A stretch of 62,627 nucleotides of DNA, counting the filler, from Candidatus Limnocylindrales bacterium (GTDB lineage Bacteria; Moduliflexota; Moduliflexia; Moduliflexales; JAUQPW01): the NCBI GenBank assembly GCA_035559535.1. It is 5 parts of 5 records of this genome, joined end to end, with 100 filler letters (N's around TTAATTAATTAA, not from the genome) between each part and the next. Parts side by side here need not be neighbours in the genome. Positions count along the whole stretch, not along the records: positions 1 to 15,138 come from DATMBG010000001.1; 4 more parts are not named here. The stretch is one strand, 5' to 3'. How positions within the stretch are numbered: the first letter of the stretch is position 1; each line of letters starts with the position of its first letter. The position numbers and the translations under genes are program-made. Below, piece after piece: positions 2,666 through 40,912 of this stretch. The notes beneath the pieces are model-generated. The model searched no databases and had not been told where the DNA came from. It saw nothing but the letters and a program-made list of their open reading frames with translations.

Positions 2666-2751
2666 CAACAAACCATGGGTCCTGGGTGCTGAGTCATGAG
2701 GGATAAATCTTATTCGTTATCATTCATCACTCGGTACCCTCAGTGAGTTCT

Positions 2752-3120
2752 ATGCGTCGTTTTTCTGCCTGGCTCGTTTTGATTCCTGTTATTTTACTTT
2801 TGATAGCTCCTGTTGGGGCGATGAGGATTCCCGCCATTGACTTTGATGTGAAAGTGACCCCAAGAGCCGGGGTCGTCCAGACGATCACCATTCAAAACTT
2901 TGCCTTCAATCCGCAAACTCTGGTCGTCAATCTCAATGATACCGTCAGGGCCATAAACAATGATGGAGTTCCCCATACCGTAACCAGTGACCAAGGACTT
3001 TTTGATTCAGGCACCATACGCCCTGGTAAATCTAAACAAGCGATAGCCAAGCGCAGAGGAACTTACCCTTATCATTGTTCCATTCACCCCTTTATGAAAG
3101 GGACAGTCATCGTACAGTAA
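2752..3120 (+). CDS. exported cupredoxin (plastocyanin/amicyanin-like blue copper protein)
   Basis: Signal peptide; PHTV ... YHCSIHPFM gives the His/Cys/His/Met type-1 Cu ligands; start 2752 or 2743. Confidence 0.85.
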   Translation: MRRFSAWLVLIPVILLLIAPVGAMRIPAIDFDVKVTPRAGVVQTITIQNFAFNPQTLVVNLNDTVRAINNDGVPHTVTSDQGLFDSGTIRPGKSKQAIAKRRGTYPYHCSIHPFMKGTVIVQ

Positions 3121-3951: not shown

Positions 3952-5115
3952 TTAAGGGATTAAGGTCTCTACAACTTTATAAACCGGAACAGCTTCCGAG
4001 ATATTTTTAAGGGATTGGGGTCCCATCTCTTCAAGTTTAAACAGCGTCTTAACGCGCTCGGCCGTCTCTCTACTGATTAAGATAGTCCCGCCCCTTGCAC
4101 AGGCTCCAAGTCTGGCTGCTAAGATCGTAGTAGGACCCACGGCGGTATAGGCCCAGCGGGTTCCGGCAATTCCCTGAAATTTGGTTGAGCCTACAAAAGC
4201 AACTCCAGAGTTGATCCCGATATTGATTAAAATAGGTTCATAGTCGTTTTTTAATTCCTCATTTATTTTATGAACTTTGCTTGTAATGGCCAGAGCGGTC
4301 CTCACAGCAGCTATGGTATGTTTAATAGTATTATCATCTTGAAAGAGGATCATTAGGCCATCTCCGGCAGTTTCGACGATATCTCCCCCATTTTCATAAA
4401 TATCATCTACAAAACTGGAGAAGTATCTTTCAACCAGATGATTCACCTGAATTTGATCCAGTCTCTGACTCATTTTAGTATAGCCTTCAATATCCAGAAA
4501 GAGGATAGATACATCTTTCTCCTGCTTTTCCAGAGCGATCTTCTTCAAGGCTGCGCTATCTGAATAGGATCGAAGGATCTGTTTCACAGATTCCGGGACA
4601 AACTTGCCCATCAGCCCTTCGATACTTTCCAATAATTCTATTTTCTTAAGAGCTGCCTTGAGCTCGGCAACCTTCTTTTCCAGCTCCTGGTTTTTGATTT
4701 CAAGTTCTTTAAGTAATCTCTTGTTTTGTTGGCTTATTTCATAAGTCTCCAAACCCCGCTTAATGGTGACCCGCAGTTCCCGCTCATCCCAGGGTTTGGT
4801 AATATATCGATAGACCTGACCGGTATTGATGGCCTCAATTAAGGCCTCGATATCTGTAAATCCCGTAAGGATCATTCGAATTATATCCGGGAACTCTGGG
4901 ATAGTTTTCTCGAGAAGCTGAATTCCGGTCATATGAGGCATCCTCTGGTCGGTGATAATCAGAGGAATGTCTTTCTCTCTTCGTAGGATGTTTAATCCTT
5001 CCTCTCCAGAGGTAGCTGTAAATACTTGATATTCCTTCCGGAAGGTCTCTTGGAAGACGATCAAATTCTGGAGTTCATCATCTACGTAGAGGATTTTATA
5101 TTTTCTTTTTCCCAT
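3952..5115 (-). CDS. response-regulator receiver + class III nucleotide cyclase
   Basis: VDDE, TDQRMP and TKPW receiver motifs; coiled-coil linker; LFLDIEGYT, ETAGDGL and IGINSG cyclase motifs. Confidence 0.9.
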   Translation of the reverse strand: MGKRKYKILYVDDELQNLIVFQETFRKEYQVFTATSGEEGLNILRREKDIPLIITDQRMPHMTGIQLLEKTIPEFPDIIRMILTGFTDIEALIEAINTGQVYRYITKPWDERELRVTIKRGLETYEISQQNKRLLKELEIKNQELEKKVAELKAALKKIELLESIEGLMGKFVPESVKQILRSYSDSAALKKIALEKQEKDVSILFLDIEGYTKMSQRLDQIQVNHLVERYFSSFVDDIYENGGDIVETAGDGLMILFQDDNTIKHTIAAVRTALAITSKVHKINEELKNDYEPILINIGINSGVAFVGSTKFQGIAGTRWAYTAVGPTTILAARLGACARGGTILISRETAERVKTLFKLEEMGPQSLKNISEAVPVYKVVETLIP

Positions 5116-5553: not shown

Positions 5554-5604
5554 TTGACAGAGATTTTTTTATTGACCAATCTTGAAATTGATAATGCTTA
5601 TCAA
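5554..5604 (+). promoter_or_regulatory. sigma70-type promoter with Fur box
   Basis: TTGACA at 5554-5559; TGATAATGCTTATCA at 5589-5603 has 1 mismatch to the 7-1-7 Fur consensus TGATAATnATTATCA. Confidence 0.75.
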
Positions 5605-5686
5605 AATCATTTTCTTTCCTATTTCCTGAAACCTGAAAAACCAGTAACCGGTCATAAACCTTTATGGCAAATTTTTGAAAGGTCTG

Positions 5687-5715
5687 GTAGGGGCGGGTTG
5701 GAAACCCCTCTCTAC
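5687..5715. repeat. GTAG-type REP-like palindrome
   Basis: GTAGGGGCGGGTTGGAAACCCCTCTCTAC; relatives at 12632, 39293, 55266, 57657 and 59350. Confidence 0.6.
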
Positions 5716-5750
5716 ATGCGGAAACGACTCCTGGAATCTCAGAATCAGGT

Positions 5751-6668
5751 ATGATCGGTTCCTTAAAGGAGAAGAAGTTTATGGAGAAAGTACGTAGGAG
5801 TCTTGTAAAACGACTCTTAATGAGTTCAATTTTACTGGCTATGGCGGGCGCTTTCTGGGTTCTGCCTTCAGGATGGAAACCCGATTTCCATCTGGGATCG
5901 ACCAGCCAGGCCCTTCCGGTGAGGGAGTATACCCTGATCAGCCGGGAGGTGGAATGGGAAGTCGCACCGGGATACACCTATAAAGCGTTGACTTTCAATG
6001 GGAGTATTCCGGGTCCTACCATTGAAGCAATCGAAGGGGAGATCATTCGGGTTAAATTCAAAAATGAGCTCTCAGAACCTCACAGCATTCATGCCCACGG
6101 AGTTCAATACGAGTTCCAGCATGATGGAACTTATCCCCATACTCCCAGTGGAGCCGTTCCTCCTGGAGGGGAGTTTGTGTATGAATGGAAAGCCGTGCCT
6201 GGAACCTGGTTTTACCACGACCATTCTGAAAAAGGGATAGAGGCGACCCGAAAAGGGATGTATGGCGCCATTATCGTCCATCCCAAAAACGAACAGGTTA
6301 AACCCGATCGGGACTTTATCCTTTTTTATGCCGATCTGGAACCTGAGATCACCGGTTTTACCGATCACCCCTTTTCAGCCTTCAACGGAAAGGCAGGAAT
6401 GGGAAATACCCCGGTGCTGAAAAGCCGGGTCGGAGACTTGGTTCGGTTCCGATTGATTAATCTCATGGATGAACCCCATACCTTTCATATTCACGGTCAC
6501 CGCTGGGAGTATAATGGAAAATTGGTGGATACCGTTTCCGTCCTCCCCGGAGAAACGGCTACCTTTGAGTTTAAGGAAGATGTCCCCGGTCAGTGGGCCT
6601 ATCACTGCCATTTTCTAACCCACATGGAAGAAGGTATGATGGGTATGTACGAAGTTTCCCCGAAATAG
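5751..6668 (+). CDS. two-domain multicopper oxidase (small-laccase-like, type B)
   Basis: HSIHAHG, WFYHDH, HTFHIHGH, HCHFLTHMEEGM; likely start at 5781 (MEKVRRSLVK, possible twin-Arg signal). Confidence 0.9.
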   Translation: MIGSLKEKKFMEKVRRSLVKRLLMSSILLAMAGAFWVLPSGWKPDFHLGSTSQALPVREYTLISREVEWEVAPGYTYKALTFNGSIPGPTIEAIEGEIIRVKFKNELSEPHSIHAHGVQYEFQHDGTYPHTPSGAVPPGGEFVYEWKAVPGTWFYHDHSEKGIEATRKGMYGAIIVHPKNEQVKPDRDFILFYADLEPEITGFTDHPFSAFNGKAGMGNTPVLKSRVGDLVRFRLINLMDEPHTFHIHGHRWEYNGKLVDTVSVLPGETATFEFKEDVPGQWAYHCHFLTHMEEGMMGMYEVSPK

Positions 6669-6691
6669 TCTCAAAAAATTTTCAACCGTTA

Positions 6692-6714
6692 TTGAAAATG
6701 AATTTTAAAATCAA
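6692..6714 (+). promoter_or_regulatory. degenerate Fur-like box upstream of the porin gene
   Basis: TTGAAAATGAATTTTAAAATCAA, overlapping imperfect 7-1-7 palindromes. Confidence 0.45.
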
Positions 6715-6754
6715 TTCACTAACCTGCTAAGGATTCAGAAAAGGAGTCAGGAGA

Positions 6755-8164
6755 ATGAAACAAGGGACAAAACAGTGGATCGGAATTATCTGTGCACTTT
6801 GGGTTTATTTTTTGGGAATCTCTTCAGTATTTGGACAGGAAGATCTCCAGATCAGACTACAAGAACTTGAAAAGAGGTTAAAACAATTAGAGGAAAAGGA
6901 AGCCCGTCAAGCTCCGGAGAAGAACGGAGAGATGGCTAAAGAGATTCAAGAATTACGTCGTCAGGTGGATATCCTGGCAACCGAGCTTGAGAAGCTCCGC
7001 AGTGGAGAGGTAGAACTGGAACTCACCGAGGAAAAAACCAAATCCCTGGGTCTGGGTCCATCGGCAGCCTCCATTTATCGAAAAAAACAGGGGGTTTCTC
7101 TGGCCGGTTATGGCGAGCTGCTCTTCCAGGATTTTGCAGATGAGGATGAAAGTGGAAACGAGGTTAATAGAGAGCCACGATTAGACTTCTTGAGAGCTAT
7201 TCTATATACCGGCTATCGTTTCAGTGACCGATTTGTATTCAATTCGGAGATTGAAGTTGAGCATGCCACGACCGGAGAGGGGGACGAAGAGAAAGGGGAG
7301 GTCTCATTGGAATTTGCCTATGTGGAATATGCAGCCAGTGATTACCTTAGCTTACGAGGGGGGTTAGTCCTTCTTCCGGTAGGCTTAATTAATGAGTTTC
7401 ATGAACCAAACGTGTTCTTAGGGGCTCGTAGACCTGAGACGGAAACCCGGATTATCCCCACAACCTGGCGAGAGAACGGAGTTGGAATCGTAGGCTCGGC
7501 AGGGATGTTCAGTTATCGGGCTTACCTCATCAATGGATTGAATGCCAGTGGTTTTAGCTCCAGTGGGCTGAGGGAAGGACGTCAAGGGGGCTCAGAGGCT
7601 TTGGCCAAAGATCTGGCCTTCGTGGGACGCCTGGATATTACCCCGACACCGGGTTTATTCTTCGGAGGCTCTCTTTATCGAGGTAGATCGGGTCAGGATC
7701 AATTCACAGTAAACGGAAAGGATCTGGATGTGACTACAACCCTCGGAGAGGTTCATGTTCAACTCCAGATGCGAGGCCTGGATTTCCGAGGTCTATATGC
7801 CCGGGCCCTTATAGATGAGGTGGCGGAGCTCAACGAAGCCTTGGGACTGACAGGAAATGAATCCATCGGTGAAACCCTTCAGGGTGGCTACCTACAAGTC
7901 GGTTATAACCTGCTACAACTAACCCGTTATAAAGACGGAACCAGAGGCTTTACTCCGTATTTTCGATTTGAGAAGCTCAATACCCAGGATGAAGTACCTG
8001 CCGGATTTGAAAGGGATCCCAGTAAAGATCAGACCTTTTATACCTTGGGAGTCGAGTTTCGACCTATTTACAATATTGTAATTAAAACGGATTATCAATG
8101 GATCCGGAATGAAGCGGAAAGTGGAATCGACCAGTTTAATATCGCCTTGGGATATAGTTTTTAA
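6755..8164 (+). CDS. outer-membrane beta-barrel porin with N-terminal coiled coil
   Basis: Signal peptide, coiled coil, amphipathic beta strands (FNSEIEVEH, LEFAYVEY), C-terminal LGYSF; AGGAG RBS. Confidence 0.8.
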   Translation: MKQGTKQWIGIICALWVYFLGISSVFGQEDLQIRLQELEKRLKQLEEKEARQAPEKNGEMAKEIQELRRQVDILATELEKLRSGEVELELTEEKTKSLGLGPSAASIYRKKQGVSLAGYGELLFQDFADEDESGNEVNREPRLDFLRAILYTGYRFSDRFVFNSEIEVEHATTGEGDEEKGEVSLEFAYVEYAASDYLSLRGGLVLLPVGLINEFHEPNVFLGARRPETETRIIPTTWRENGVGIVGSAGMFSYRAYLINGLNASGFSSSGLREGRQGGSEALAKDLAFVGRLDITPTPGLFFGGSLYRGRSGQDQFTVNGKDLDVTTTLGEVHVQLQMRGLDFRGLYARALIDEVAELNEALGLTGNESIGETLQGGYLQVGYNLLQLTRYKDGTRGFTPYFRFEKLNTQDEVPAGFERDPSKDQTFYTLGVEFRPIYNIVIKTDYQWIRNEAESGIDQFNIALGYSF

Positions 8165-8224
8165 TATCCTTTACTATTAACTCGAAAAAAGAGCCATCTA
8201 CGCGGAAACCACAAGGAGGGAACC

Positions 8225-9307
8225 ATGAAAAAATACGGGATACTTTTAGGGGTTATGATCCTGTTGGAAGTCCTGTTCTTAGCCGTTTCAGCCCCAGCCG
8301 TAGAGCGTCACTATTGGATTGCAGCCGATGAAGTGATGTGGGACTACGCCCCATCCTTCCCCGTAAACCTGATGACAGGAGAGGAATTTGATCAAGAGCA
8401 GCGAACCTTTGTGGAAAAAGGTATTGGTCGGATCTACCTTAAGGCAGTGTATCGGGAGTATCTACCCGGTTTTGCAGCCTTAAAACCCCGTAGTCCTGAA
8501 GAAGCCCACTTAGGCATCCTTGGGCCGATCATCCGGGCCGAGGTGGGAGATACCGTTAAAGTCCACTTTCGTAACAATACCCGTTTCCCCCTCAGTATTC
8601 ACCCCCACGGGGTGTTCTACGATAAAAATTCTGAGGGTTCTCCCTATGCCGATGGAACCATCCTCAAAGCCGATGACGCAGTTCCTCCATTTGGGGGAAC
8701 CCACACCTATATATGGAGAATTCTACCACGTGCAGGTCCTGGTCCTATGGACCCAAGTTCCATCGTTTGGGTTTATCACGGCCACACCCATGAAACTGCA
8801 GATAGTAATAGTGGACTAATCGGCCCTATCATCATCACCCGGAAAGGAAGTGCTAAAATCGATGGAAGTCCCATCGATGTAGACCGGGAATTCGTTTCCC
8901 TATTTACTATCTTTGATGAGAACGAGAGCCTCTACCTGGAAGAAAATATTGCCAGGTGTACTAAAGGTCCCTGTAACCGGGATGACGAAGACTTTAAAGA
9001 AAGTAATCTTAAGCACAGTATTAACGGCCTTCTATGGGGCAACAATACCGGCTACGTAATGCGAATGGGAGAGCATGTACGCTGGTACCTCATTGCCATG
9101 GGAACCGAAGTAGATATACATACACCCCACTGGCATGGAGTAACCGTTCTCCATCAGGGGAGTCGTCTGGACGTTATAGAATTGTTCCCAGCTACCACTA
9201 AAACGGTAGACTTAATCCCAGATGATCCGGGAAACTGGATGTTTCATTGCCATGTTAATGATCATATCAAGGCGGGGATGATGACCCTTTTTACTATCTT
9301 ACCATAA
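8225..9307 (+). CDS. two-domain multicopper oxidase, ceruloplasmin/hephaestin-like
   Basis: Signal peptide; RHYWIAADEVMWDYAP, HLGILGPIIRAEVGD, SIHPHG, YHGH, HTPHWHG, HCHVNDHIKAGM; GGAGG RBS. Confidence 0.9.
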   Translation: MKKYGILLGVMILLEVLFLAVSAPAVERHYWIAADEVMWDYAPSFPVNLMTGEEFDQEQRTFVEKGIGRIYLKAVYREYLPGFAALKPRSPEEAHLGILGPIIRAEVGDTVKVHFRNNTRFPLSIHPHGVFYDKNSEGSPYADGTILKADDAVPPFGGTHTYIWRILPRAGPGPMDPSSIVWVYHGHTHETADSNSGLIGPIIITRKGSAKIDGSPIDVDREFVSLFTIFDENESLYLEENIARCTKGPCNRDDEDFKESNLKHSINGLLWGNNTGYVMRMGEHVRWYLIAMGTEVDIHTPHWHGVTVLHQGSRLDVIELFPATTKTVDLIPDDPGNWMFHCHVNDHIKAGMMTLFTILP

Positions 9308-9352
9308 ACCGGGATCTCCCCGCCTGGTTGACGAAAAACACGTAAAATTTCC

Positions 9353-9414
9353 TTGACAAGATCTTAACCCTTTAAGTATCTTACCTCATAAAGATGAGAT
9401 TAATTATCAATATC
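9353..9414 (+). promoter_or_regulatory. promoter with Fur box upstream of bfd-bfr
   Basis: TTGACA (9353)-N18-TATCTT (9377); TGAGATTAATTATCA at 9395-9409 has 2 mismatches to the Fur consensus. Confidence 0.7.
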
Positions 9415-9472
9415 ACTTCATCCTATCCCAAATTCTTCGACCCATAACTTTATCTGGAGGAGAAAGAAAAGT

Positions 9473-9694
9473 ATGTTTGTTTGCTTATGCAAGGGGATTA
9501 CAGAATCACGCGTACGAGAGTTTGGTCGATCTGGAATCGTAACTCCAGACGAAATTGCTTCTGCACTGGGTATTGATGACGAGAGTTGCTGTGGACGATG
9601 TATGCGGAATATAGAATCCTTTGTAAGTCTTGCCATCAGTGCGTGGAATATGGCCGTTACCTGCCCGACTCAAGATCCTGATTGCCTGAAATAG
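9473..9694 (+). CDS. bfd: bacterioferritin-associated [2Fe-2S] ferredoxin
   Basis: MFVCLCKGIT...CCGRC; directly upstream of bfr; GGAGG RBS. Confidence 0.88.
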   Translation: MFVCLCKGITESRVREFGRSGIVTPDEIASALGIDDESCCGRCMRNIESFVSLAISAWNMAVTCPTQDPDCLK

Positions 9695-9805
9695 TAGCTT
9701 TTTCTCCCGGATGAAACTACTTGACAGAAGTTGCTGACCAGGCCTAAAGTTAGGAACACAAGGAAACAAAGGCATTTTATTTCCCATTAAGGATAGGAGG
9801 CTACT

Positions 9806-10276
9806 ATGAAGGCAAAAGAGGGAGTCATTAACTTTCTAAATAATGCCTTAACCAATGAATTGACGGCGATCAATCAATACTTTATCCATGCACAGATGTG
9901 TAAACACTGGGGATATGAACGGCTTTATCATAAACATCGTGAGGAAGCTATTGAAGAAATGAAACATGCAGAAGAACTCATCGACCATATTCTTTATCTC
10001 GAAGGTGTTCCCAATATGCAACGACTGGGCACCGTCAGTGTGGGTGAAACGGTTCTAGAACAACTCAACTTGGATTTAAAACTCGAACAAGATTCGGTTA
10101 CCTTACTGAATACCGCCATTGCCCATTGTGCCAGTGTAAGTGATAACACAACCCGATATAAACTCGAGAAAATCCTGAGAAGCAGTGAAGAGCACATCGA
10201 TTGGATTGAAACTCAGCTCGCGACCATCCAGCAGATTGGGTTGGAGAATTATCTCACAGAACAGATTAAGAAATAG
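9806..10276 (+). CDS. bfr: bacterioferritin
   Basis: NELTAINQYFIH, EEMKHA (heme ligand Met52), EEHIDWIETQL; GGAGG RBS. Confidence 0.96.
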   Translation: MKAKEGVINFLNNALTNELTAINQYFIHAQMCKHWGYERLYHKHREEAIEEMKHAEELIDHILYLEGVPNMQRLGTVSVGETVLEQLNLDLKLEQDSVTLLNTAIAHCASVSDNTTRYKLEKILRSSEEHIDWIETQLATIQQIGLENYLTEQIKK

Positions 10277-10329
10277 AATTTCCAGATTGAAGGAGATAAG
10301 GGGAAAGGGAAGCTGAAACAAAACCAACC

Positions 10330-10917
10330 ATGCTTAAAACCTATGTGGCCCCAACTTCTCGGCTAAACCGGCCATTTTTCCGAAATCTAAGGGGGATACT
10401 CCTCCTGGTCTTTATGGGAGTAAGTCCTTCTTCAGTGGCCGGAGAGCTGATCAGCCGGGAAGAGGCCCTGGCTTTGGTTTTTCCGGGTGCCGAGTTTAAA
10501 GCTGAAAGGATTTTTCTCACAGAACAACAAAGAAAAGAAGCAGCTAATCTGGCCGGTACAGAGGTACCGAACGCCTTAATTGCCCGTTATCTGGCCCTTA
10601 AAGAAGGTAACCTAATCGGTTATGCCTATGTGGATACCCACACCGTAAGAACGAAGAAAGAGAGCTTGCTCATTTCCCTGGATGAAAAAGGGAGGGTCAA
10701 GCGGGTGGAAGTCATTGTCTTTATGGAACCCCGGGAGTATCAGGCTCCTCCAGAATGGTACAGGCAATATCAGGGTAAATCCTTGGATGAAGAATTAAAC
10801 CTGCAGCGGGCCATTCATCCTCTGGCCGGGGCTACACTCACCTCCATCGCAGCCAATCAAGCTGTACGGCGAGTGCTTGCCATCCATCAGGTTCTCCAAG
10901 GGGATATTCATCCATGA
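10330..10917 (+). CDS. exported FMN-binding (flavinylated) protein
   Basis: Signal-like segment; C-terminal LAGATLTS resembles the [S/T]GA[S/T] ApbE flavinylation motif; next to apbE. Confidence 0.8.
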   Translation: MLKTYVAPTSRLNRPFFRNLRGILLLVFMGVSPSSVAGELISREEALALVFPGAEFKAERIFLTEQQRKEAANLAGTEVPNALIARYLALKEGNLIGYAYVDTHTVRTKKESLLISLDEKGRVKRVEVIVFMEPREYQAPPEWYRQYQGKSLDEELNLQRAIHPLAGATLTSIAANQAVRRVLAIHQVLQGDIHP

Positions 10918-11387
10918 ATCGCTGGGAAACCCGGTTACTCCATGTACTGACCGGAGTGGTGACTATAACGGGAATTGTTTATTTCTGGATGAAGTATCTC
11001 ATGGAGACCGAGGATCCCTTTCAGGTGATTAACCATCCCTGGCAGCCTTTCATGTTAAAGAGCCATATTTTGGTAGCTCCCGCATTGATCTTTGCGGTGG
11101 GACTGATTACCAAATCTCATATTTTGAGGAAATTAAATACCACCCGGGTGAACCGGTTCTCTGGAGGGTTGGCCCTTTTTTCTTTCCCCTGTATGGTGAT
11201 CTCGGGTTATTTATTGCAGGTAGTTACCGATGAAATCGGTTCTCGAATTGTTTTGGTCCTGCACCTGGGAACCGGCGTCCTTTTTGCCGGTGCTTATCTG
11301 ATCCATCAGATGATAACTTTCCGCTCATGGATGAAGCGCATAAAGCAACGCAGAGTACGTCGTTTGGTCATTCAAGGGAAAGAATAG
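10914..11387 (+). CDS. four-TM His-rich membrane protein, putative cytochrome b (DUF4405-like)
   Basis: Four hydrophobic helices with intramembrane His (LLHV, KSHIL x2, VLHLG, LIHQ); ATGA overlap with the upstream gene. Confidence 0.65.
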   Translation: MNRWETRLLHVLTGVVTITGIVYFWMKYLMETEDPFQVINHPWQPFMLKSHILVAPALIFAVGLITKSHILRKLNTTRVNRFSGGLALFSFPCMVISGYLLQVVTDEIGSRIVLVLHLGTGVLFAGAYLIHQMITFRSWMKRIKQRRVRRLVIQGKE

Positions 11388-11594
11388 GGATCCCTGGGGG
11401 ATCTGTTGCGTAGTATCTTTTTTACCAAATTGATCCTTTTCCTGGCATCTCCGAGGAATAAACTTTTTGAGAGTCACAGATAGGATGAGCGGTTAAATTG
11501 CCTTATACGAAGGGTGATTTCTAAATCTATTTCAACTCCCGAATAATTGCAAAAAGCTATTCCAGAACCCCCTGGAGTAAAATCTTACCCGATC

Positions 11595-12635
11595 ATGAAA
11601 AAAGCTATTATTTTTTTAGTCCTTGGTCTGTTTCTGGTTTCTCCGATTATAGGATCAACTTTTTTAGTTGATCCTGACTGGGTGGAAGTCACACGGCAGG
11701 TTTATCTGATGGGAACCCTTTGCACACTTACCACCTATTCCCCCCACCGACAAAGTGGACTCCAGCAACTAGAGGTTTTTCTGGATATCCTTGAAAAAAC
11801 CGAACAAGAATTAAGCACCTGGCGCCCGGATAGCACTTTAAGTCGTTTAAATCGACAGCCTTTGCAGGTTCCCTTTGTAGTCGATAAATCCCTATGCCGC
11901 CTCTTTACGGAGCTTGTGTTTTGGCAACAGGCTACCGGATCTACCTTTGATCCGGCTATTGGGCCGCTTCTGGAAGCATGGGGAGTTCACAAAGGAGGAC
12001 AATGGCCTCGACCAGAGGTTTTGGAAGCGGCACGGGAGCGGTCCGGAATGGGTTATCTCAGGTTTGATCCCTCCCTATGTCAGATTACCCGAGAACGGGA
12101 GGTAACCCTCGATACCGGTGCTTTCGGTAAGGGTGAAGCCCTGGATCGGGTCTTCCGTTATACCCTGGCCCATGGCTCTACTCCCTGGTTGATTGATTTA
12201 GGAGGACAGGTAATGGTGTACGGTCAGCCGCCGAGAGCTACTTCCTGGAAAGTGGACCTTGCCCATCCCCAACAGCGAGATCAACCCCTATTAACCCTGA
12301 ATATGACCTCTGGCTCCTTGTCCACCAGTGCCGGGTCAGAGAGAGACTCCTACGTAAACGGACGACGCATCGGGCATATTCTGGATCCTCGCACAGGTCG
12401 TCCCGCCGATTTCACAGGTTCCGTAACCGTGTGGCACGAACAGGCTCTGGTCGCCGATATCCTTTCCACAGCTCTTTACGTCATGGGACCTAAAGAAGGA
12501 CTCCCCTGGGCTGAGGCCAGGAATTTAGCCGTCTGTTTTTTTACGATCCAAAATGGAAAAGTTGAGATTCAGGCCAGTCAGGCTTTTAAACAGCGTTTTC
12601 AACTAAATAAGATTAATCTACATTTTATAAAGTAG
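11595..12635 (+). CDS. apbE: FAD:protein FMN transferase
   Basis: LMGT, FDPAIGPL, LDTGAFGKG, DLGGQ, GHILDPRTG, ADILSTAL. Confidence 0.92.
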   Translation: MKKAIIFLVLGLFLVSPIIGSTFLVDPDWVEVTRQVYLMGTLCTLTTYSPHRQSGLQQLEVFLDILEKTEQELSTWRPDSTLSRLNRQPLQVPFVVDKSLCRLFTELVFWQQATGSTFDPAIGPLLEAWGVHKGGQWPRPEVLEAARERSGMGYLRFDPSLCQITREREVTLDTGAFGKGEALDRVFRYTLAHGSTPWLIDLGGQVMVYGQPPRATSWKVDLAHPQQRDQPLLTLNMTSGSLSTSAGSERDSYVNGRRIGHILDPRTGRPADFTGSVTVWHEQALVADILSTALYVMGPKEGLPWAEARNLAVCFFTIQNGKVEIQASQAFKQRFQLNKINLHFIK

Positions 12636-13981: not shown

Positions 13982-14812
13982 ATGGGTTATCCTTTAGAGG
14001 TTACAGACGATGTGGGAAGGCTTGTTTATTTAGAAAAACCCCCCGAGAGAATCATTTCTCTGGTTCCAAGTATTACAGAAATCCTGTTTGCCTTTGGAGT
14101 GGGAGATCGGATCGTTGGAGTTACCGACTATTGTACGGAGCCTGAAAAAGAAGTAGCCCAAAAAGAAAAAGTAGGTGGCACCAAGAAACCTCGTAGAGAA
14201 AAAATTCTTAAACTGCGTCCAGATCTGGTGATTATGAATGCTGAAGAGAACAGAAAAGAGGACGCTGAATATCTAAAAGATCACGGCATAATCTTCTATG
14301 TGACATTTCCAAGAACGGTAGCACAAAGCCTCAAGATGATGTGGAACCTGGCCCAATTGACCGGATCTTTGGAAAATGCAGAAAAGATCCTCCGACCCAT
14401 CGAGAGGCTCTATCAACAAACCTTACAACGTGTACAGAGAAGTTCTTTGATAAAAGTATTTTGTCCCATCTGGAAGATGCCCTACATGTCTTTCAATACC
14501 GATACCTACATCGATAACTTGATTACCCTCTGTGGGGGCCAGAATATTTTTAAAGATAAGGCAGAGCGCTATTTTAAAGTAACTTTAGAGGAGGTGGTCC
14601 AAAGAAATCCAGATGTTATCTTGCTACCTGATGAACCTTATAAATTCTCCGAAGTAGACCTGGAGGATTTTCAACCCTTCCCAGAAGTATCCGCCGTCAA
14701 GATGCGCCAAATTTATCTGATCGATGGTAAACTCCTCTCCTGGTATGGGCCCCGAATGAAAGAAGGGGTTTTGAAACTCCAGGAGTTATTCTCAAAAATT
14801 CCTTCCCTTTAG
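13982..14812 (+). CDS. BtuF-like helical-backbone metal/cobalamin-binding protein
   Basis: RIISLVPSITE, VGVTDYC, VGGTK, PDLVI, LLSWYGPR. Confidence 0.85.
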   Translation: MGYPLEVTDDVGRLVYLEKPPERIISLVPSITEILFAFGVGDRIVGVTDYCTEPEKEVAQKEKVGGTKKPRREKILKLRPDLVIMNAEENRKEDAEYLKDHGIIFYVTFPRTVAQSLKMMWNLAQLTGSLENAEKILRPIERLYQQTLQRVQRSSLIKVFCPIWKMPYMSFNTDTYIDNLITLCGGQNIFKDKAERYFKVTLEEVVQRNPDVILLPDEPYKFSEVDLEDFQPFPEVSAVKMRQIYLIDGKLLSWYGPRMKEGVLKLQELFSKIPSL

Positions 14813-21285: not shown

Positions 21286-24200
21286 CTATCTGGAACCGAC
21301 TCCCCGTTCTACCGGGTGTTGTCCATTCCGTCTCATTCCATTACCTGTTTCTACAGGATGCTCACTGCGTCGCCCGTTATCGGTGATGGTAGTCTCCAGC
21401 GGCTCTGCCTCCAGGAGTTCGGGAGCGGGTAGCTGAGCGGTCGGACCTTCTGGGATCTGGGTGCGGCCTCGAAATCGTCTGCTCAGCTTTTCTCGTAAGG
21501 ATTCCATATAAATATAGAAAACAGGTGTAATATAGAGCGTAAGAATCTGAGAGAACAAGAGACCTCCCACAACAGCCAGACCCAGGGGACGACGGGCTTC
21601 CGCACCGGCACCGACACCCAATGCAATGGGTAAAGTACCCATAAGGGCTGCCATGGTGGTCATCATAATAGGACGGAACCGAATAAGACTCCCTTCATAG
21701 ATGGCATCCGCCGGATTTTTCCCTTCATTTCTTTGAGCATCCAACGCAAAATCGATCATCATAATAGCATTTTTCTTTACGATACCGACCAGCATGATAA
21801 TACCTACAAAAGCATAGATATCCAGATCCCGATGGAAGAGGAGCAGGGTTAATAAAGCTCCAAATCCGGCAGAGGGGAGACCCGAAAGAATTGTTAAAGG
21901 GTGAATAAAACTCTCGTAGAGGATACCCAGTATGATGTAGATTACGAGAATGGCCATAATCAGGAGAAGCCCTAAACCTTGCAAGGAGGATTGAAAAGCC
22001 TGGGCCGTACCTTGAAAACTGGCACTGATGGTAGAAGGGAGCGTTTTACGGGCCAGGTCTTCCACCAAAGCAACCGCCTCTCCTAAAGATACTCCGGGCC
22101 TGACATTGAAAGAGAGGGTAACGGCCGGAAGCTGACCCAAATGATTCACCGATAAAGGTCCCACACCCAATGTGATGTTGGCAACTGCCTTGAGTGGAAC
22201 CAGTTGTCCACTGGAGGATCGGATATAGAGTAAAGATAAAGCGGTTGGATCCATTTGATATTGAGGTTCTACTTCCATAATGACCTTGTACTGATTGTTA
22301 GGTGCATAGATGGTCGAAACCTGTCGGGATCCATAGGCACTGTAAAGGGTTTCTTCGATTTGGAGGGCTGTAATTCCAAGGGCTTCTGCTTTATCCCGAT
22401 AAATTTCAATATTCACCTGGGGATTTTTGATTTGCAAATCACTGGTTACATCCTGGAGTTGGGGTAATTCCCGCATCTTAGCTTCGAGGATCGGTGCATA
22501 ATGATAAAGTTCCTGGGTATCTGGACTCTGGAGGGTAAACTGGTAAGGACTCTTGGTCAACTGACCACCGATACGAATGGGAGGAAGATTTTGCATAAAA
22601 ACCTGAATTCCTGGGACCGTCGCCAATTTAGGTCTTAACTCCTGGATGACCTGGTCTACACTCAACTGACGTTCGGAGCGAGGTTTCAAACGAATGAATA
22701 GGCGACCTGTATTGCTTCCACTGATACTGGACATGAAGGAATCTACATAGGGATCTTGCTGGAGAATAGCTCCCAGGGCTTGATGGTACCTTACCATGGC
22801 ATCAAAGGAAGTTCCCTGGGCAGCTTCGGTGAAAGCAAAGATCTGTCCGGTATCTTCACTGGGGAGGAATCCTTTAGGGGTAATGAGGAAAAGATATAGG
22901 GTAGCCACGAGGATAATCCCCGAGATGATCATGGTTATGAGGCGATGGCGTAAGACCTTTTTCAGACTCCAATCATAAACCCGGAGCATTCCTTCGAAGA
23001 CACGCTCCGAAGCGGCATAGAAACGACCCTGCTTTTGTGCACTGGGTGGGCGTAAGAATCGACTACAAAGCATAGGGGTAAGGCTTAAAGAAACAAAACC
23101 GGAGACGAGTATGGCCATGCTAATCGTTACAGCGAACTCGTGGAGCAGACGTCCGAGGATCCCCCCCATGAAGAGCACAGGAATGAAAACGGCTGCGAGG
23201 GACAGGGTCATGGATAAAACGGTAAACCCAATTTCTTTAGACCCGATCAGGGCTGCCTGCATCCTTCCTTTACCCATCTCCATATGCCGGACGATGTTTT
23301 CCAGCATAACGATGGCATCATCGACCACAAAACCCACCGACAGGGTCAAAGCCATTAAAGAAAGGTTATCCAGGCTGTAGCCCAGTTGGTACATCACGGC
23401 GAAGGTGGCAATAATCGACATAGGTAAGGCCAGGCTGGGAATAATCGTAGCCGAGAGATTACGCAGGAAAAGAAAGATGACTAAAACGACCAGACAAACC
23501 GTCAGAACCAGCGTAAACTTGACGTCATTGACCGATTCACGTATCGATACAGATCGATCATAAAGGATATTAAGGTCAATCGAGGCCGGCATCTGGGCCC
23601 GGAAGGTGGGGAGAAGCTTTTTGATAGAATCTACGACCTCTACGGTATTGGTACCCGGCTGACGTTGAATAGCCAGAACGATGGCACGGATATCATTGTA
23701 CCAGCTTGCGATTTTGTCATTCTCTACACTACTAATAACTCTACCGAGTTCCTGAAGGCGCACCGGGGAGCCATTACGATAGGTTACAATGAGTGAGCGA
23801 TACGCCACCGCATCGATAAGCTGGCCGTTGGTCTCCACGGTAAAAGCCTTTTGAGGTCCGGATAGCATACCGGTTGGTAAATTTGCATTTCCCTCTTGGA
23901 TTGCGTTGGCCACCTCATTTATTCCAATGGCCCGACTGGCCAGAGCTTTAGGATCCAGTTGGATACGAACTGCGTATTTCTGTGAGCCAAAAACCTGGAC
24001 CTGAGCAACCCCGCTGATCATGGAAACCCGCTGAGCAATAAACGTATCGGCATATTCATTAACCGTTGAGAGGGGAAGGGTCGGAGAACTTAGGGCCAAA
24101 TAGAGAATAGGTTGATCGGCAGGGTTTACCTTGCGATAAGAGGGCGGACTTGGCATATTCTGGGGAAGTTGAGGAGCAGTCTGGGCAATGGCCGCCTGGA

Positions 24201-24522
24201 CATCTTGAGCCGCCGCGTCAATATCCCGGCTCAAATTAAACTGGAGAGTAATCTGGGTACTTCCCAGGGTGTTGGTGGAGGTCATCGAGTCCAGGCCCGC
24301 AATGGTAGAAAATTGTCGCTCCAAAGGAGTCGCTACCGAGGCCGCCATGGTTTCGGGACTGGCTCCAGGAAGACTCGCAGTTACCAGAATGGTGGGAAAA
24401 TCTACGTTGGGCAGGTCACTCACAGGCAGGAGTTGATATCCTGCAATCCCAAAGAGTAGAAAACTCATCATAAGGAGTGTGGTGGTAATGGGGCGACGAA
24501 TAAAAAGCTCTGTAATATTCAT
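21286..24522 (-). CDS. RND efflux permease (MdtB/MdtC-like)
   Basis: FIRRPITT, LPNVDFPTI, GFVVDDAIVMLENI, GIVKKNAIMMIDFA, RFRPIMMTT. Confidence 0.95.
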   Translation of the reverse strand: MNITELFIRRPITTTLLMMSFLLFGIAGYQLLPVSDLPNVDFPTILVTASLPGASPETMAASVATPLERQFSTIAGLDSMTSTNTLGSTQITLQFNLSRDIDAAAQDVQAAIAQTAPQLPQNMPSPPSYRKVNPADQPILYLALSSPTLPLSTVNEYADTFIAQRVSMISGVAQVQVFGSQKYAVRIQLDPKALASRAIGINEVANAIQEGNANLPTGMLSGPQKAFTVETNGQLIDAVAYRSLIVTYRNGSPVRLQELGRVISSVENDKIASWYNDIRAIVLAIQRQPGTNTVEVVDSIKKLLPTFRAQMPASIDLNILYDRSVSIRESVNDVKFTLVLTVCLVVLVIFLFLRNLSATIIPSLALPMSIIATFAVMYQLGYSLDNLSLMALTLSVGFVVDDAIVMLENIVRHMEMGKGRMQAALIGSKEIGFTVLSMTLSLAAVFIPVLFMGGILGRLLHEFAVTISMAILVSGFVSLSLTPMLCSRFLRPPSAQKQGRFYAASERVFEGMLRVYDWSLKKVLRHRLITMIISGIILVATLYLFLITPKGFLPSEDTGQIFAFTEAAQGTSFDAMVRYHQALGAILQQDPYVDSFMSSISGSNTGRLFIRLKPRSERQLSVDQVIQELRPKLATVPGIQVFMQNLPPIRIGGQLTKSPYQFTLQSPDTQELYHYAPILEAKMRELPQLQDVTSDLQIKNPQVNIEIYRDKAEALGITALQIEETLYSAYGSRQVSTIYAPNNQYKVIMEVEPQYQMDPTALSLLYIRSSSGQLVPLKAVANITLGVGPLSVNHLGQLPAVTLSFNVRPGVSLGEAVALVEDLARKTLPSTISASFQGTAQAFQSSLQGLGLLLIMAILVIYIILGILYESFIHPLTILSGLPSAGFGALLTLLLFHRDLDIYAFVGIIMLVGIVKKNAIMMIDFALDAQRNEGKNPADAIYEGSLIRFRPIMMTTMAALMGTLPIALGVGAGAEARRPLGLAVVGGLLFSQILTLYITPVFYIYMESLREKLSRRFRGRTQIPEGPTAQLPAPELLEAEPLETTITDNGRRSEHPVETGNGMRRNGQHPVERGVGSR

Positions 24523-25799
24523 GAACTTGCCTCCTTGTTACTTCCTTGATCGTTCTTCACTTCTACTTTCATACCCGGAGTAAGCCGAAGTTGGCCGTCT
24601 GTGACTACCTTCTCTCCCGGTTGAAGTCCCTTCTCAATGATGCTTTCATTTTCCAATGTCCTGGCTACAACCACAGGACGGGATTCAACCGTAAGGTCAG
24701 GTTTAATGACAAACACGTAGGAACCTTGTTGTCCTGCCTGAATGGCCTGGGATGGGGCCACAATGGCATTAGGTTGGGTGGTAAGGGTTAAAGTTACATT
24801 AACAAATTGGCCGGGCCAGAGACGTTTTTCTTCGTTATCAAAGGTTCCTTTGAGTTGAATAGTCCCGGTAGCTTTATCTACCGCATTGTCTACAAAGGTA
24901 ACGACCCCTTTTACCGGATTCCCTTCCGAGTTAGGTATTTCAGCTTCCACCTGGAGTTTCCCCTGTGCCATATATTTCTTTATCTCAGGGAGTTCTTGTT
25001 CAGGAACGGAAAAAGTAACATAAATGGGACTGATTTGATTGATATTTACCAGGACCGTATCATTGGCTTTGATCAGGTTCCCCGGATGAACCATAAGATC
25101 TCCTGTTCGCCCGTCCAAAGGAGACCGGATGGAACAGTACTCCAACTCCAGTTTAACATTCTCTATAGCCGCCTGATCTGCACGAATAGCTGCTTTGGCA
25201 TCTTCTACAGCAGCTTGATCTGCATGCAAGGCTGCCTGAAGGGCTTCTGCATTGGTACGAATCTGATCATATTGATCTTTAGAAATAATCCCCTGCTGAT
25301 TCAAGCTCTCATAGCGTCGCGCTTGAACCTGGGCATTTTTTGCCTGGGCAGCGGTTTTTGCCAGGTTGGCTTCAGCCTGTTTTAAGCGGGCTATATCCTT
25401 TGCCAGATTGGCTTCAGCCTGTCTAAGTGCCGCCTCTAAAGGTCTTCGATCAATGGTAAAAAGAAGATCCCCTTTCTTCACATCCTGACCTTCCTGGAAA
25501 TACACCCCGGTCAGTTCTCCATTTACCTGGGCCCGGACCGCCACAACGGAATAAGCTTCGGCCGTCCCAATGGTTTTTATCTGGATCGGAACGGTTTTTT
25601 CAACTACCGTAGCTGCAGTGACCGGTACGGCTGCCCTCTGCCTAGGCTGATCAGATTTTCCACTGGCGTCTCCCCGGGAACAGGCCGTAAGAAATATCAG
25701 GATAATCCATAATAGTCCAAATCCTTTCAGGGGAAGAAATAAAGGAGAAAAAAGGAGTCGAACTTTTTGATAACTTAAAGGTTTCATTTTTTGCCTCAT
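24519..25799 (-). CDS. RND periplasmic adaptor (MdtA-like lipoprotein)
   Basis: LTAC lipobox, FQEGQDVKKGD, DNAVDKATGT, LWPGQFV; overlaps the permease start. Confidence 0.93.
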   Translation of the reverse strand: MRQKMKPLSYQKVRLLFSPLFLPLKGFGLLWIILIFLTACSRGDASGKSDQPRQRAAVPVTAATVVEKTVPIQIKTIGTAEAYSVVAVRAQVNGELTGVYFQEGQDVKKGDLLFTIDRRPLEAALRQAEANLAKDIARLKQAEANLAKTAAQAKNAQVQARRYESLNQQGIISKDQYDQIRTNAEALQAALHADQAAVEDAKAAIRADQAAIENVKLELEYCSIRSPLDGRTGDLMVHPGNLIKANDTVLVNINQISPIYVTFSVPEQELPEIKKYMAQGKLQVEAEIPNSEGNPVKGVVTFVDNAVDKATGTIQLKGTFDNEEKRLWPGQFVNVTLTLTTQPNAIVAPSQAIQAGQQGSYVFVIKPDLTVESRPVVVARTLENESIIEKGLQPGEKVVTDGQLRLTPGMKVEVKNDQGSNKEASS

Positions 25800-25933
25800 A
25801 AAGACGAAAAAAACATTTTAATACAATTTTTATGGTCTATTATTCAATTTACCCAGAAGAGAAGGAAGTGTCAAATGCATTTTCAGGACGGGATTTAGAT
25901 TCCCAGGATGGGCAAAAGGGTCTTCCTTTCCCC

Positions 25934-26031
25934 TACGCATCCAGCTAAGAAGGGGAAAAGCCTTATTTTCGGCCTGAACACCTTCCTAAGGGGTGTCTGG
26001 ACCTCAGGTCTGATCCTCAGCTTGAGGCCTA
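25934..26031. mobile_element. putative MITE
   Basis: Imperfect terminal IRs (TACGCATCCAGCTAAG / CTCAGCTTGAGGCCTA); the first ~47 nt recur inverted at 36529-36577. Confidence 0.45.
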
Positions 26032-26099
26032 CGCCCCTTCCCCTATCTTTCATAGGGGAAGGGTCGGGGAGGGAAGCTTATTCCAGAAATTAGAGAATG

Positions 26100-29000: not shown

Positions 29001-29390
29001 TGATACAACAGGTGGATCTACATTGCTGGGTAAATCCGGCAGGATTGTAGCAATACGATCCCGTACATCCTGGGCAGCCGTGTCAATGTTTCGGTCCAGA
29101 TTAAAGGTAATAATAACAACCGAACTACCCTGACCCGAAACCGAACGGAGTTCATTAATACCCTCCACTGTATTGACAGCTTCTTCAATCCGTTGGGAGA
29201 CCTCTGTTTCAACCTCTTCTGCCGAGGCACCTGGAAACGTTGTGCGTATGCTGATGGTGGGTACATCAACCGAGGGAAAACGATCAACCCCCAGCCGAAA
29301 GTAACTGGTTGCTCCTACAACGACCAGGGCCAGGATAAGCATCGATGCAAAGATGGGACGCTGAATACAAACTTCGGCAAGTTTTTGCAT
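26100..29390 (-). CDS. RND efflux permease (AcrB/SwrC-like)
   Basis: QRPIFA, GVVIDDAIVVLENI, GVVKKNSILQID, RLRPILMTT. Confidence 0.94.
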   Translation of the reverse strand: MQKLAEVCIQRPIFASMLILALVVVGATSYFRLGVDRFPSVDVPTISIRTTFPGASAEEVETEVSQRIEEAVNTVEGINELRSVSGQGSSVVIITFNLDRNIDTAAQDVRDRIATILPDLPSNVDPPVVSKFDNDSSPVMTVALSANRPVRELTELADKIVKVQLERSSGVGEVRIVGGLERAINVWVSAHKLAAYHIPITAVRDTIVRQNVDVPGGNVTAGPVEHVLRTMGRVIDPKEFNELVIATVNGVPIRIQDIGWVEDGTKEQRSLARLNGVPTVTLEIRRQSGANTVAVIEAAKKSLAKISSQLPPDVRLEVIQDQSRYIYAALHEINLHLILGSLLACLVVLIFMRSWRSTLIAGIAIPTSVIATFGMMWALDFTLNSVTMLALVLMVGVVIDDAIVVLENIFRFVEEKKMRPFEAARLATAEIGLAVMATTLSLVVIFVPVSFMSSISGRFLYQFGITAAVAVLVSLLVSFTLTPMMSARLLRAEDAVMGDAHSPARSRKGFYAWLDRGYARTLAFAIHHRALICLLALGVMASSIPLYRLVKQEYIPSDVDEAEFNVIVTAPEGTSLAAMDKIMQAVESELRSTPGVRLVLASAGGGFLSRVNQGSVYVRIAPHEERTFSLTRLWHGILHGDPLQAFRGNYTQRDVMQDVRRRLKKYRNIRFTVRNAPSFNIGSGNFEIDFVLRGPDLTALATYAEQLRERSQELGIIDADTTLRLDKPELHVEIDRARAADLGVDPTDIATALRLMVGGDQKVSRFRDISVNDDYDVQLRLVEEDRNNPETISRLYLPHRGEGLVRLDNIVRIVPAQGPSRIDRLDRQRQVSLRASIAPGYALADRLEALRKAVAEMNLPPGYTTSVSGRGRELERTFNEFIWAFSLSIVFMYMILASQFESLIHPFTILLSLPLSVPFALLSLWFTGNTLNLYSALGILVLFGVVKKNSILQIDHMNNLRANGMDRTAAIMQGNRDRLRPILMTTLALVAGMLPLAVGTGPGAEERRTIAVVVIGGQTLSLFPTLLVTPVAYSLLDDLGSLLQRRRLAIRKLQLAGRFQLQELWQGNGQVPSPSAEDHPVPIPLHPTEDKPDKTP

Positions 29391-40811: not shown

Positions 40812-40868
40812 TTGACATATTCCCCAGAAATAGGGGATTCTTGTTGGACAATGGTTATCAGTTTTCAA
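40812..40868 (+). promoter_or_regulatory. promoter with Fur-like box
   Basis: TTGACA at 40812; GGACAATGGTTATCA at 40846-40860 has 3 mismatches to the Fur consensus. Confidence 0.45.
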
Positions 40869-40912
40869 TGGTAGTTTAACAACTTTAGGGAGGAGGCAGT
40901 CAGAAAAGAAGT

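Follow-up and report, generated by a model that had tools for sequence, protein, structure and literature searches.

A gene cluster at positions 5554-12635 of a 62,627-nucleotide stretch of DNA from Candidatus Limnocylindrales bacterium (assembly GCA_035559535.1; five joined parts, filler included; hereafter the window) raises the question of whether its genes form one conserved iron-handling system. A first-pass annotation, made from the sequence alone, had proposed an envelope-spanning system of eight co-oriented genes. These encode two two-domain multicopper oxidases (MCO1 and MCO2), an outer-membrane porin, the bacterioferritin-associated [2Fe-2S] ferredoxin Bfd, the bacterioferritin Bfr, a periplasmic protein of the flavin mononucleotide (FMN)-binding type (FMN-protein), a 157-amino-acid inner-membrane protein (TM157), and the flavin adenine dinucleotide (FAD):protein FMN transferase ApbE. 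The eight genes were confirmed between 5751 and 12635, all on the plus strand and separated by short gaps. The conserved unit is a four-gene cassette of porin, FMN-protein, TM157, and ApbE with local additions, and a single conserved system of all eight genes was not borne out in the related loci examined. The iron theme of the locus was retained, as was the assignment of the gene products to compartments from the outer membrane to the cytoplasm.

Conservation of the gene cluster

An alignment of the porin (6755-8164, plus strand) was scanned against species-representative genomes, in which at least 595 relatives were found among the first 600 pattern matches. The best 80 of these were kept with 10-kb flanks. 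Seventy-two of the loci were labelled Acidobacteriota, and the other eight Woeseiaceae, Gemmatimonadales, Latescibacterota, Deltaproteobacteria and others. Of 8000 scored candidates, 2154 were porin relatives at an E-value of at most 1e-3; where the 120 listed relatives carried a name, it was mostly that of Acidobacteriota.

A tblastn search with the window proteins over the 80 loci detected the porin in 80, FMN-protein in 74, TM157 in 73, and ApbE in 69 loci. MCO1, MCO2, Bfd, and Bfr were detected in none of the 80, and relaxation of the threshold to E≤1 for these four proteins gave chance matches only (E 0.59 and 0.72). Porin, FMN-protein, TM157, and ApbE followed one another in this order, on one strand, in 64 of the 80 loci. 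Eight loci had porin, FMN-protein, and TM157 without ApbE downstream, three of them with ApbE just upstream of the porin; FMN-protein alone stood beside the porin in two loci, and none of the three partner genes in six. Clustering of all open reading frames (ORFs), performed independently of the window genes, revealed no further family conserved around the porin. The next commonest neighbour families, such as a Na+/H+ antiporter, a glyoxalase, and PAP2, occurred in at most 23 loci and were unrelated and lineage-specific; the same applies to a pyrroloquinoline quinone (PQQ) propeller flanking the cassette in relatives. Because the cassette order was kept in 64 loci and the other four genes were absent from all 80, the unit was defined as the four-gene cassette. 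The synteny check suggested by the first-pass annotation was thus positive for porin, FMN-protein, TM157, and ApbE, and negative for MCO1, MCO2, Bfd, and Bfr.

Three of the six loci without the partner genes (L006, L007 and L009) instead have a FeoB gene downstream of the porin on the same strand, each scoring 166 bits for FeoB_N. Between porin and FeoB, FeoA was found at 57.5 bits in L006, the one locus examined for it. In a midpoint-rooted maximum-likelihood tree of the barrel, the window porin was sister to that of locus L001 (support 98/91), which has an unbroken cassette, and both were placed inside the cassette-type porins. The feoAB-linked and the stand-alone porins formed one clade (100/98) nested among the cassette-type porins.

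Identity to the window porin does not exceed 62% (best tblastn segment) in the 80 loci, which therefore do not sample the window's own clade. Closer porin relatives are known only on metagenomic contigs. Here the longest contigs of porin and oxidase relatives were equal in size in four cases: porin P0001 (97%) and MCO1 P0255 (96%) at 173543, P0243 (member of a 76% porin cluster) and MCO1 P0256 (75%) at 23692, porin P0004 (75%) and MCO1 P0257 (78%) at 5100, and porin P0005 (70%) and MCO2 P0123 (72%) at 5521. Only three of the 120 listed MCO1 relatives were more than 50% identical. Judging from the equal contig sizes in these 70-97% relatives, the pairing of oxidase and porin is probably real and confined to a narrow clade. 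The simplest history would take the four-gene cassette as the common state, into which the window lineage inserted MCO2-bfd-bfr, with MCO1 placed ahead of it.

The outer-membrane porin

The porin comprises 469 amino acids with a signal peptide and a coiled coil at about residues 28-83. An AlphaFold2 model based on 22 sequences showed 16 strands behind the N-terminal coiled coil, with a mean predicted local distance difference test (pLDDT) score of 73.5 that was higher in the barrel. Foldseek searches with this model retrieved OmpM1, Omp-Pst1/2, OmpF, and OmpC at E-values of about 1e-12. The best-conserved stretch is formed by residues 213-241. Comparison to Pfam gave no match even at E≤10, the phosphate-selective porin O/P family PF07396 included; in look-alike clusters of the Atlas PF07396 occurs in 19% and 85% of the members, which is taken as a lead only. 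When the profiles of the porin and of TM157 were searched against the sequences of solved structures, coiled-coil or chance matches were obtained only. The porin is predicted to be an iron entry channel. An assignment to DUF3570, a flavinylated outer-membrane barrel, was considered and rejected: no Pfam match was found, and no [S/T]GA[S/T] word was seen by eye.

The proposed flavin-based electron transfer module

FMN-protein (195 amino acids; 10330-10917, plus strand) resembles RnfG and NqrC. It scored 18.2 bits against PF04205, below the cut-off of 22, and 27 of 36 family members matched PF04205 at E≤0.01. The family profile matched RnfG of a solved Rnf complex (9eri_G) with an E-value of 1.2e-6, the GAT of the family being aligned with the GST of RnfG. 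All 36 sequences have G167 and A168, and conservation of T169 is 90% or more. Flavinylation is predicted at Thr169 in AGAT.

Second copies of the FMN-protein gene were observed in seven loci, namely L047 (18127-18687), L059 (13186-13902), L060 (13337-13876), L071 (17173-17751), L072 (15743-16318), L075 (17508-18086), and L078 (7985-8545). In L059 and L060 the second copy directly follows ApbE; in L075 its neighbours are DUF5671 and DUF418 genes.

TM157 (10914-11387, plus strand) matched no family at threshold in profile scans; its best Pfam scores were those of an acyltransferase (23.9 bits) and CopD (17.9 bits). There was no Pfam match at E≤10 to the NapH-like, MsrQ-like, PepSY-like, DsbD, or NQR/RNF-like classes. 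The description of this protein as His-rich in the first-pass annotation was overstated, with six His in 157 residues; five of these (His41, 51, 69, 117, and 131) are invariant in 37 sequences. The structural model consists of four long helices (pLDDT 95.6). Foldseek ranked FdnI (TM-score 0.61, E 0.11) and the hydrogenase-1 cytochrome b HyaC (0.57, E 0.23) best, and further matches included cytochromes b561, Dcytb, a designed di-haem bundle, STEAP, and NOX. One Atlas cluster (rank 12) carries PF01292 in 17% of its members. By the positive-inside rule, applied by eye, both ends would be cytoplasmic, and helices 2 and 4 would run in parallel from the periplasm to the cytoplasm. In these helices His51 and His117 are located 7-8 residues in, and His69 and His131 22-25 residues in, a spacing that in the model is as expected for two stacked b haems. 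TM157 is predicted to be a di-haem b-type electron carrier, with the haems probably on His51/His117 and His69/His131.

The TM157 family comprised 1348 cluster representatives (50% identity) at E≤1e-3, 653 at 1e-10, and 237 at 1e-30. Among 150 relatives listed, ten were at least 445 amino acids long and begin with TM157; in nine of them a complete ApbE domain follows (P0381, P0383, P0385, P0386, P0390, P0394, P0396, P0412 and P0416). Two shorter relatives carry a partial ApbE domain. These natural fusions are independent evidence that TM157 works with ApbE. A prediction of the complex of TM157 and FMN-protein (residues 38-195) from alignments gave a value of 0.01 against a mark of 0.32, which speaks neither for nor against an interaction.

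The linker of 30-70 residues in the fusions may hold a fifth membrane helix. The tenth long relative, P0497 (445 amino acids), carries a Phenol_MetA_deg outer-membrane barrel domain behind TM157; this is either a gene-calling join or a sign of TM157 pairing with another barrel family.

ApbE (11547-12635, plus strand) was identified by PF02424 with 212 bits. By eye, its start is likely at an internal Met at 11595, before a hydrophobic signal or anchor segment.

Fur-like boxes and promoter-like sites

The window was scanned with the 19-nt E. coli Fur consensus, and expectations were derived from shuffled windows. The strongest match lies in a promoter-like region ahead of MCO1 (5554-5614, plus strand), which contains TTGACA at 5554 and a box array at 5584-5614 in three overlapping registers of 14, 15, and 16 of 19 positions. 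The 16/19 match at 5590 is expected 0.02 times per shuffled window. A promoter-like TTGAAA-17-AATCAT was found at 5582-5610. The stretch singled out by the first-pass annotation starts at 5554. An ORF of 66 amino acids at 5554-5754 with a TTG start has no family match and was rejected as a gene; because it overlaps the TTGACA and the best Fur-like box, this segment was treated as promoter and leader. An Rfam scan of the whole window at gathering thresholds gave 0 matches, and therefore no known riboswitch in the long leader before MCO1.

Ahead of bfd, a promoter-like site (TTGACA-18-TATCTT, 9353-9382, 10/12) directly precedes a Fur-like box at 9390-9414, so that the whole element spans 9353-9414 on the plus strand; the box matches in 15 of 19 positions at 9396 (0.28 expected per shuffled window). 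The promoter-like site ahead of bfr (TTGACA-18-TAAAGT, 9721-9750, plus strand, 10/12) has no Fur-like box. As a class, promoter-like matches in the region were not in excess (11 observed versus 10.5 in shuffles). Upstream of the porin, a word at 6690-6712 (plus strand) matches in 13 of 19 positions at 6694, which is chance level, with about 16 such matches expected per window; by eye it resembles a palindrome found upstream of the porins of relatives. With the same consensus no Fur-like box was found before ApbE. Of the Fur-like boxes originally reported at three promoters, those before MCO1 and bfd exceeded the chance expectation, and that before the porin was not distinguishable from chance in the window itself.

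In the relatives, the best consensus match was determined for 79 loci in a segment that covers the 400 bp ahead of the porin gene and its first 60 bp; L064 was left out for want of upstream DNA. Matches of at least 13/19 were present in 39 of the 79 loci and in 49 of 3118 equally long control windows drawn from these loci; for matches of at least 14/19 the counts were 14 of 79 and 16 of 3118. The upstream matches are variants of one palindrome that recurs in distant loci. From the consensus matches and the enrichment in relatives, the operator upstream of the cassette is predicted to be of the Fur type.

A further 14/19 Fur-like match was observed at 40847, just upstream of a coiled-coil protein of 1062 amino acids, the two together spanning 40847-44101. 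Matches of this protein to crescentin-like rods were below the cut-off.

Multicopper oxidases, Bfd and Bfr

Both oxidases scored above the Pfam cut-offs for Cu-oxidase_3 and Cu-oxidase_2, and by eye both show the four His-rich copper motifs, HCH included. For MCO1 (5751-6668, plus strand) the scores were 123 and 107 bits. An AAGGAG precedes a second ATG at 5781; the start is likely located there, followed by a twin-arginine-like signal (RRSLVK, by eye). The closest solved relative is the two-domain oxidase 3gdc_A (138 bits). By eye, MCO1 is devoid of the Asp before the second type-1 His, an iron-site residue common to MCO2 and ceruloplasmin.

MCO2 (8225-9307, plus strand) has a Sec-type signal. 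In both human and rat ceruloplasmin, all three units align with residues 28-358 of MCO2, at 234-271 bits per unit (748-776 in total). Factors V and VIII are next closest, and solved bacterial two-domain laccases reach about 63 bits. The iron ligands of ceruloplasmin are E597, H602, D684, and E971 in domain 4, and E935, H940, D1025, and E272 in domain 6 (PMC3738974). Residues were matched by alignment to chain 1kcw_A, whose numbering reproduces the ligand residues of that review. The iron ligands correspond as E259=E597, H264=H602, D346=D684, and E295=E272, and the type-1 copper residues as C342=C680, H347=H685, and M352=M690. By this alignment, a single chain of 360 amino acids combines an intact ferroxidase-type site with the full set of copper motifs, and MCO2 is predicted to be a ceruloplasmin-type ferroxidase. 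The earlier suggestion that the multicopper oxidases act as ferroxidases was strengthened for MCO2, since all four iron ligands are kept. MCO2 would presumably act as a homotrimer, because it consists of one unit instead of three fused ones. The MCO2 family accounted for 7215 of 8000 scored sequences at E≤1e-3, with source names including Nitrosomonas, Scalindua, Methylococcales, Planctomycetes, Burkholderiales, and Nitrospira. No paper characterising this bacterial family was found in the literature search.

Bfd (9473-9694, plus strand) was assigned by PF04324 (28 bits, cut-off 26), and its Cys pattern was seen by eye. It reached 18.6 against the 75 demanded by the NCBIfam equivalog PRK10509, and is therefore considered a member of the family and not a close orthologue of E. 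coli Bfd. Bfr (9806-10276, plus strand) scored 194.4 bits against TIGR00754 (cut-off 125.55) and 163 bits against Azotobacter Bfr 1sof_A. Met52, presumably the haem ligand, and the presumed further ligands Glu18, Glu51, His54, Glu94, and His130 were read by eye. The column of Azotobacter Glu127 (1sof_A) is occupied by Ser in Bfr, with Glu at the next two positions, and the di-iron site may be incomplete; in the solved Bfr 5zur_A this position is Thr.

Other genes in the window

A response regulator fused to an adenylate/guanylate cyclase domain (3952-5115, minus strand) is divergently oriented at a distance of 635 bp from MCO1. On the other side, 1.3 kb past ApbE and beyond an SH3-domain gene on the opposite strand, a lone TroA-like periplasmic protein for binding of metal or haem/B12 is encoded at 13982-14812 (NF038402, 177 bits), with no permease or ATPase nearby. 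Possible copper-handling genes are a cupredoxin (2743-3120), two resistance-nodulation-division (RND) pumps with a membrane-fusion protein (21286-29390), and a YHS-domain AI-2E transporter (36792-38138). Two short ORFs match only the C-terminal ends of their families, namely Glyco_transf_20 (56573-56941; positions 378-469 of 473) and GRDB (35401-35913; positions 211-345 of 347); these may be gene remnants or miscalled starts.

Proposed function and alternative explanations

The explanation given about an even chance of being correct is that the cassette is a conserved, iron-regulated porin combined with a flavin-based periplasmic ferric reductase for uptake, extended in the window by MCO1, placed between operator and porin, and by MCO2 and bfd-bfr, placed between porin and FMN-protein. 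At low iron, the repressor would release the cassette promoter, and the porin would let iron species into the periplasm. TM157 with its two predicted b haems would move electrons through the inner membrane to the periplasmic side. As no cytoplasmic domain is part of the cassette, quinol is their most likely source. FMN-protein, with FMN attached to Thr169 by ApbE, would take these electrons and reduce Fe(III) or its chelates to Fe(II), and the Fe(II) would be imported by a transporter encoded elsewhere, e.g. FeoB. A role of the porin in ferrous uptake agrees with the one clade in which feoA-feoB takes the place of the downstream genes. MCO2 may re-oxidise periplasmic Fe(II), either for an Fe(III) route or for protection, and Bfd and Bfr would handle storage and release of cytoplasmic iron, with bfd under its own box. 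What the data show directly is the gene content, the synteny, the enrichment of the box, the folds, and the conserved residues; haem binding, flavinylation, the direction in which electrons flow, the substrate, and any cooperation of the added genes with the cassette are inferences.

Several points weigh against this proposal. The cassette contains neither an inner-membrane iron transporter nor a cytoplasmic electron-donor domain. Ferric reduction next to ferroxidation would also appear to cycle iron futilely, unless the two act at different times or channelling keeps them apart. The recurring box of most relatives departs from the E. coli Fur consensus at several positions and could belong to another regulator of the Fur family. 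Its enrichment may partly reflect AT-richer intergenic DNA compared with mostly coding controls, and the counts are not independent events, as many loci are related. In the window, iron control of FMN-protein, TM157, and ApbE is unsure because bfr and a promoter-like site lacking a box precede these genes. The AGAT motif departs in its first position from the published [S/T]GA[S/T]. TM157 scored 12.3 bits against cytochrome b561 (PF01292, cut-off 30.1) and 10.5 bits against DUF4405 (PF14358, E 0.93, cut-off 26.7), and its fold matches were weak (E 0.1-0.6) and mixed with unrelated channels.

As originally proposed, all eight genes would act as a single system across the envelope, oxidising as well as reducing iron and supplying storage; the co-orientation and tight spacing of the genes and the Fur-like boxes before both MCO1 and bfd speak for this. 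The equal contig sizes also point to one or other oxidase remaining linked to the porin within the window's clade, and a reductase with a multicopper ferroxidase recalls the Fre/Fet3 pathway of yeast. However, MCO1, MCO2, Bfd, and Bfr are missing from the 80 loci even at E≤1, the sister locus has an unbroken cassette, at least three promoter-like sites divide the region, one of them without a box, and no Ftr1-like permease is present at the locus. The contig-size matches are indirect and say nothing on bfd, bfr, or gene order. An integrated system of eight genes is judged quite unlikely. A similarly low probability is given to the cassette being a general periplasmic or extracellular electron outlet instead of an assimilatory iron reductase, for respiratory Fe(III)/Mn(IV) reduction, for flavin-mediated extracellular electron transfer via the porin, or for the supply of electrons to an unlinked periplasmic enzyme. 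The redox roles of ApbE-flavinylated systems are indeed varied, respiration and extracellular electron transfer among them (PMC8238504), and nothing in the cassette indicates a substrate or encodes an iron importer; against such an outlet stand the enrichment of a Fur-type box upstream of the porin and the clade with feoA-feoB in place of the three downstream genes. In addition, a 16-strand barrel would be too narrow for a protein partner as in porin-cytochrome conduits.

The palindrome could instead be recognised by another Fur-family regulator (Mur, Zur, PerR, or Nur), in which case the cassette would serve manganese, another metal, or peroxide stress. The departures of the word from the E. 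coli consensus and the general resemblance of Fur-family boxes to one another would allow this. The window's own box, however, matches the iron Fur consensus in 16 of 19 positions, the link to feoAB points to iron, and delta-proteobacterial Fur boxes likewise depart from the E. coli form (PMC545781); this explanation is regarded as very unlikely. For the oxidases, it is improbable, at a level comparable to the electron outlet, that MCO1 and perhaps MCO2 act on copper (cuprous oxidase, tolerance) or Mn(II) and are mere neighbours of the iron genes. Three of the 120 listed MCO1 relatives (36-42% identical) bear the source name "manganese oxidase", although such names are automatic labels. The missing Asp in MCO1 agrees with a function in copper or manganese turnover, as do the cupredoxin, the two RND pumps, and the YHS-domain protein of the window; the strongest Fur-like box directly before MCO1 and the full ceruloplasmin iron site of MCO2 argue for iron.

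Beyond the porin-reductase proposal, TM157 could represent a new class of small di-haem cytochromes which, with the RnfG-like flavoprotein and a trimeric porin on a coiled-coil stalk, forms one physically continuous, Fur-controlled trans-envelope complex for entry and reduction of Fe(III), paired here with a single-unit ceruloplasmin as a prokaryotic counterpart of eukaryotic reductase/ferroxidase uptake. This extension is considered unlikely.

Iron acquisition of Acidobacteriota, which are abundant in soil and sediment, is poorly known. If correct, the proposed function of the cassette would bring the membrane electron carriers of flavinylation systems to six or seven kinds, provide a function for a large porin family without a Pfam model, and represent a route for siderophore-independent reductive iron uptake in Gram-negative bacteria. 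As judged from the alignment of MCO2, bacteria have single-unit proteins which align over the full length with vertebrate ceruloplasmin and keep the complete iron site. This is relevant to how ceruloplasmin and the A domains of coagulation factors V and VIII arose.

Comparison with known systems

MCO2 and ceruloplasmin align over the full mature length of MCO2 and have in common the four iron ligands as well as Cys, His, and Met of the type-1 copper; unlike ceruloplasmin, MCO2 is one unit and not three fused. With bacterial two-domain oxidases it shares all four copper motifs in one chain, but the match to solved two-domain laccases is far poorer.

Reductive-oxidative iron uptake of yeast employs the Fre reductase, the Fet3 ferroxidase, and the Ftr1 permease. 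An outward-facing haem/flavin reductase, predicted here, together with a multicopper ferroxidase and iron control would be common to both cases. In contrast to yeast, no Ftr1-type permease is present, only the oxidase superfamily is homologous, and the pairing is confined to the window's narrow clade. The earlier statement that FTR1, FeoB, TonB receptor, and ABC permease are absent from the genes of 5554-12635 was confirmed by family profile scans.

Fur-regulated porins of Geobacter and Desulfuromonas have been predicted to carry iron (Rodionov et al. 2004, PMC545781). The hypothetical porin psp among them resembles the cassette porin in its weak similarity to phosphate-selective porins, the Fur-type boxes upstream, and the predicted transport of iron. 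Another leads a feoA-feoB operon, as in L006, L007, and L009, but this feoAB-linked Geobacter porin is of the OprB type and thus of a different family. Unlike the cassette, these porins are reported without flavin or ApbE genes.

DUF4405 has been described as a haem b protein with six transmembrane helices and, with FezC, as associated with flavinylation and ferrosomes (Huang et al. 2024, PMC11334425). Common to both is a small membrane protein beside apbE with four conserved membrane His and a proposed role in iron redox chemistry. TM157 differs by four helices in the model instead of six and by its score for PF14358 (10.5 versus 26.7 bits); it may work like DUF4405 without being a member.

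The closest comparison is that with ApbE-flavinylated systems linked to iron. Five membrane classes have been distinguished in flavinylated systems (NapH-like, MsrQ-like, PepSY-like, DsbD, and NQR/RNF-like), and ApbE clusters with PepSY-like and MsrQ-like proteins have been linked to iron reduction (Meheust et al. 2021, PMC8238504). In Caulobacter, the PepSY/DUF2271/DUF4198/ApbE cluster CC_3059-63 was induced 12- to 44-fold by iron limitation and in a fur mutant (PMC3751524). The cassette shares with such systems an exported ApbE (export judged by eye), a predicted periplasmic flavinylation substrate, a membrane component of putative haem type that would pass electrons outward, and a putative link to iron and Fur. 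It differs in that TM157 fits none of the five published classes, and in that the substrate is an RnfG-like FMN_bind protein, mostly below the Pfam cut-off, with an AGAT site. In addition, the cassette is led by a dedicated porin and is devoid of a NAD-binding domain, VIT1, and a TonB receptor. The words porin, multicopper, bacterioferritin, and Acidobacteri do not occur in the main text of PMC8238504. Full-text searches, with supplementary cluster tables outside their scope, retrieved no paper on the combination of porin, FMN-protein, TM157, and ApbE. The earlier remark that the locus is not a described system hence applies to the four-gene cassette, which is apparently undescribed, and not to its kind, since ApbE-flavinylated systems linked to iron assimilation have already been described. 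The cassette belongs to this known kind of electron transfer system and differs from its described members in the membrane component, the leading porin, and the substrate.

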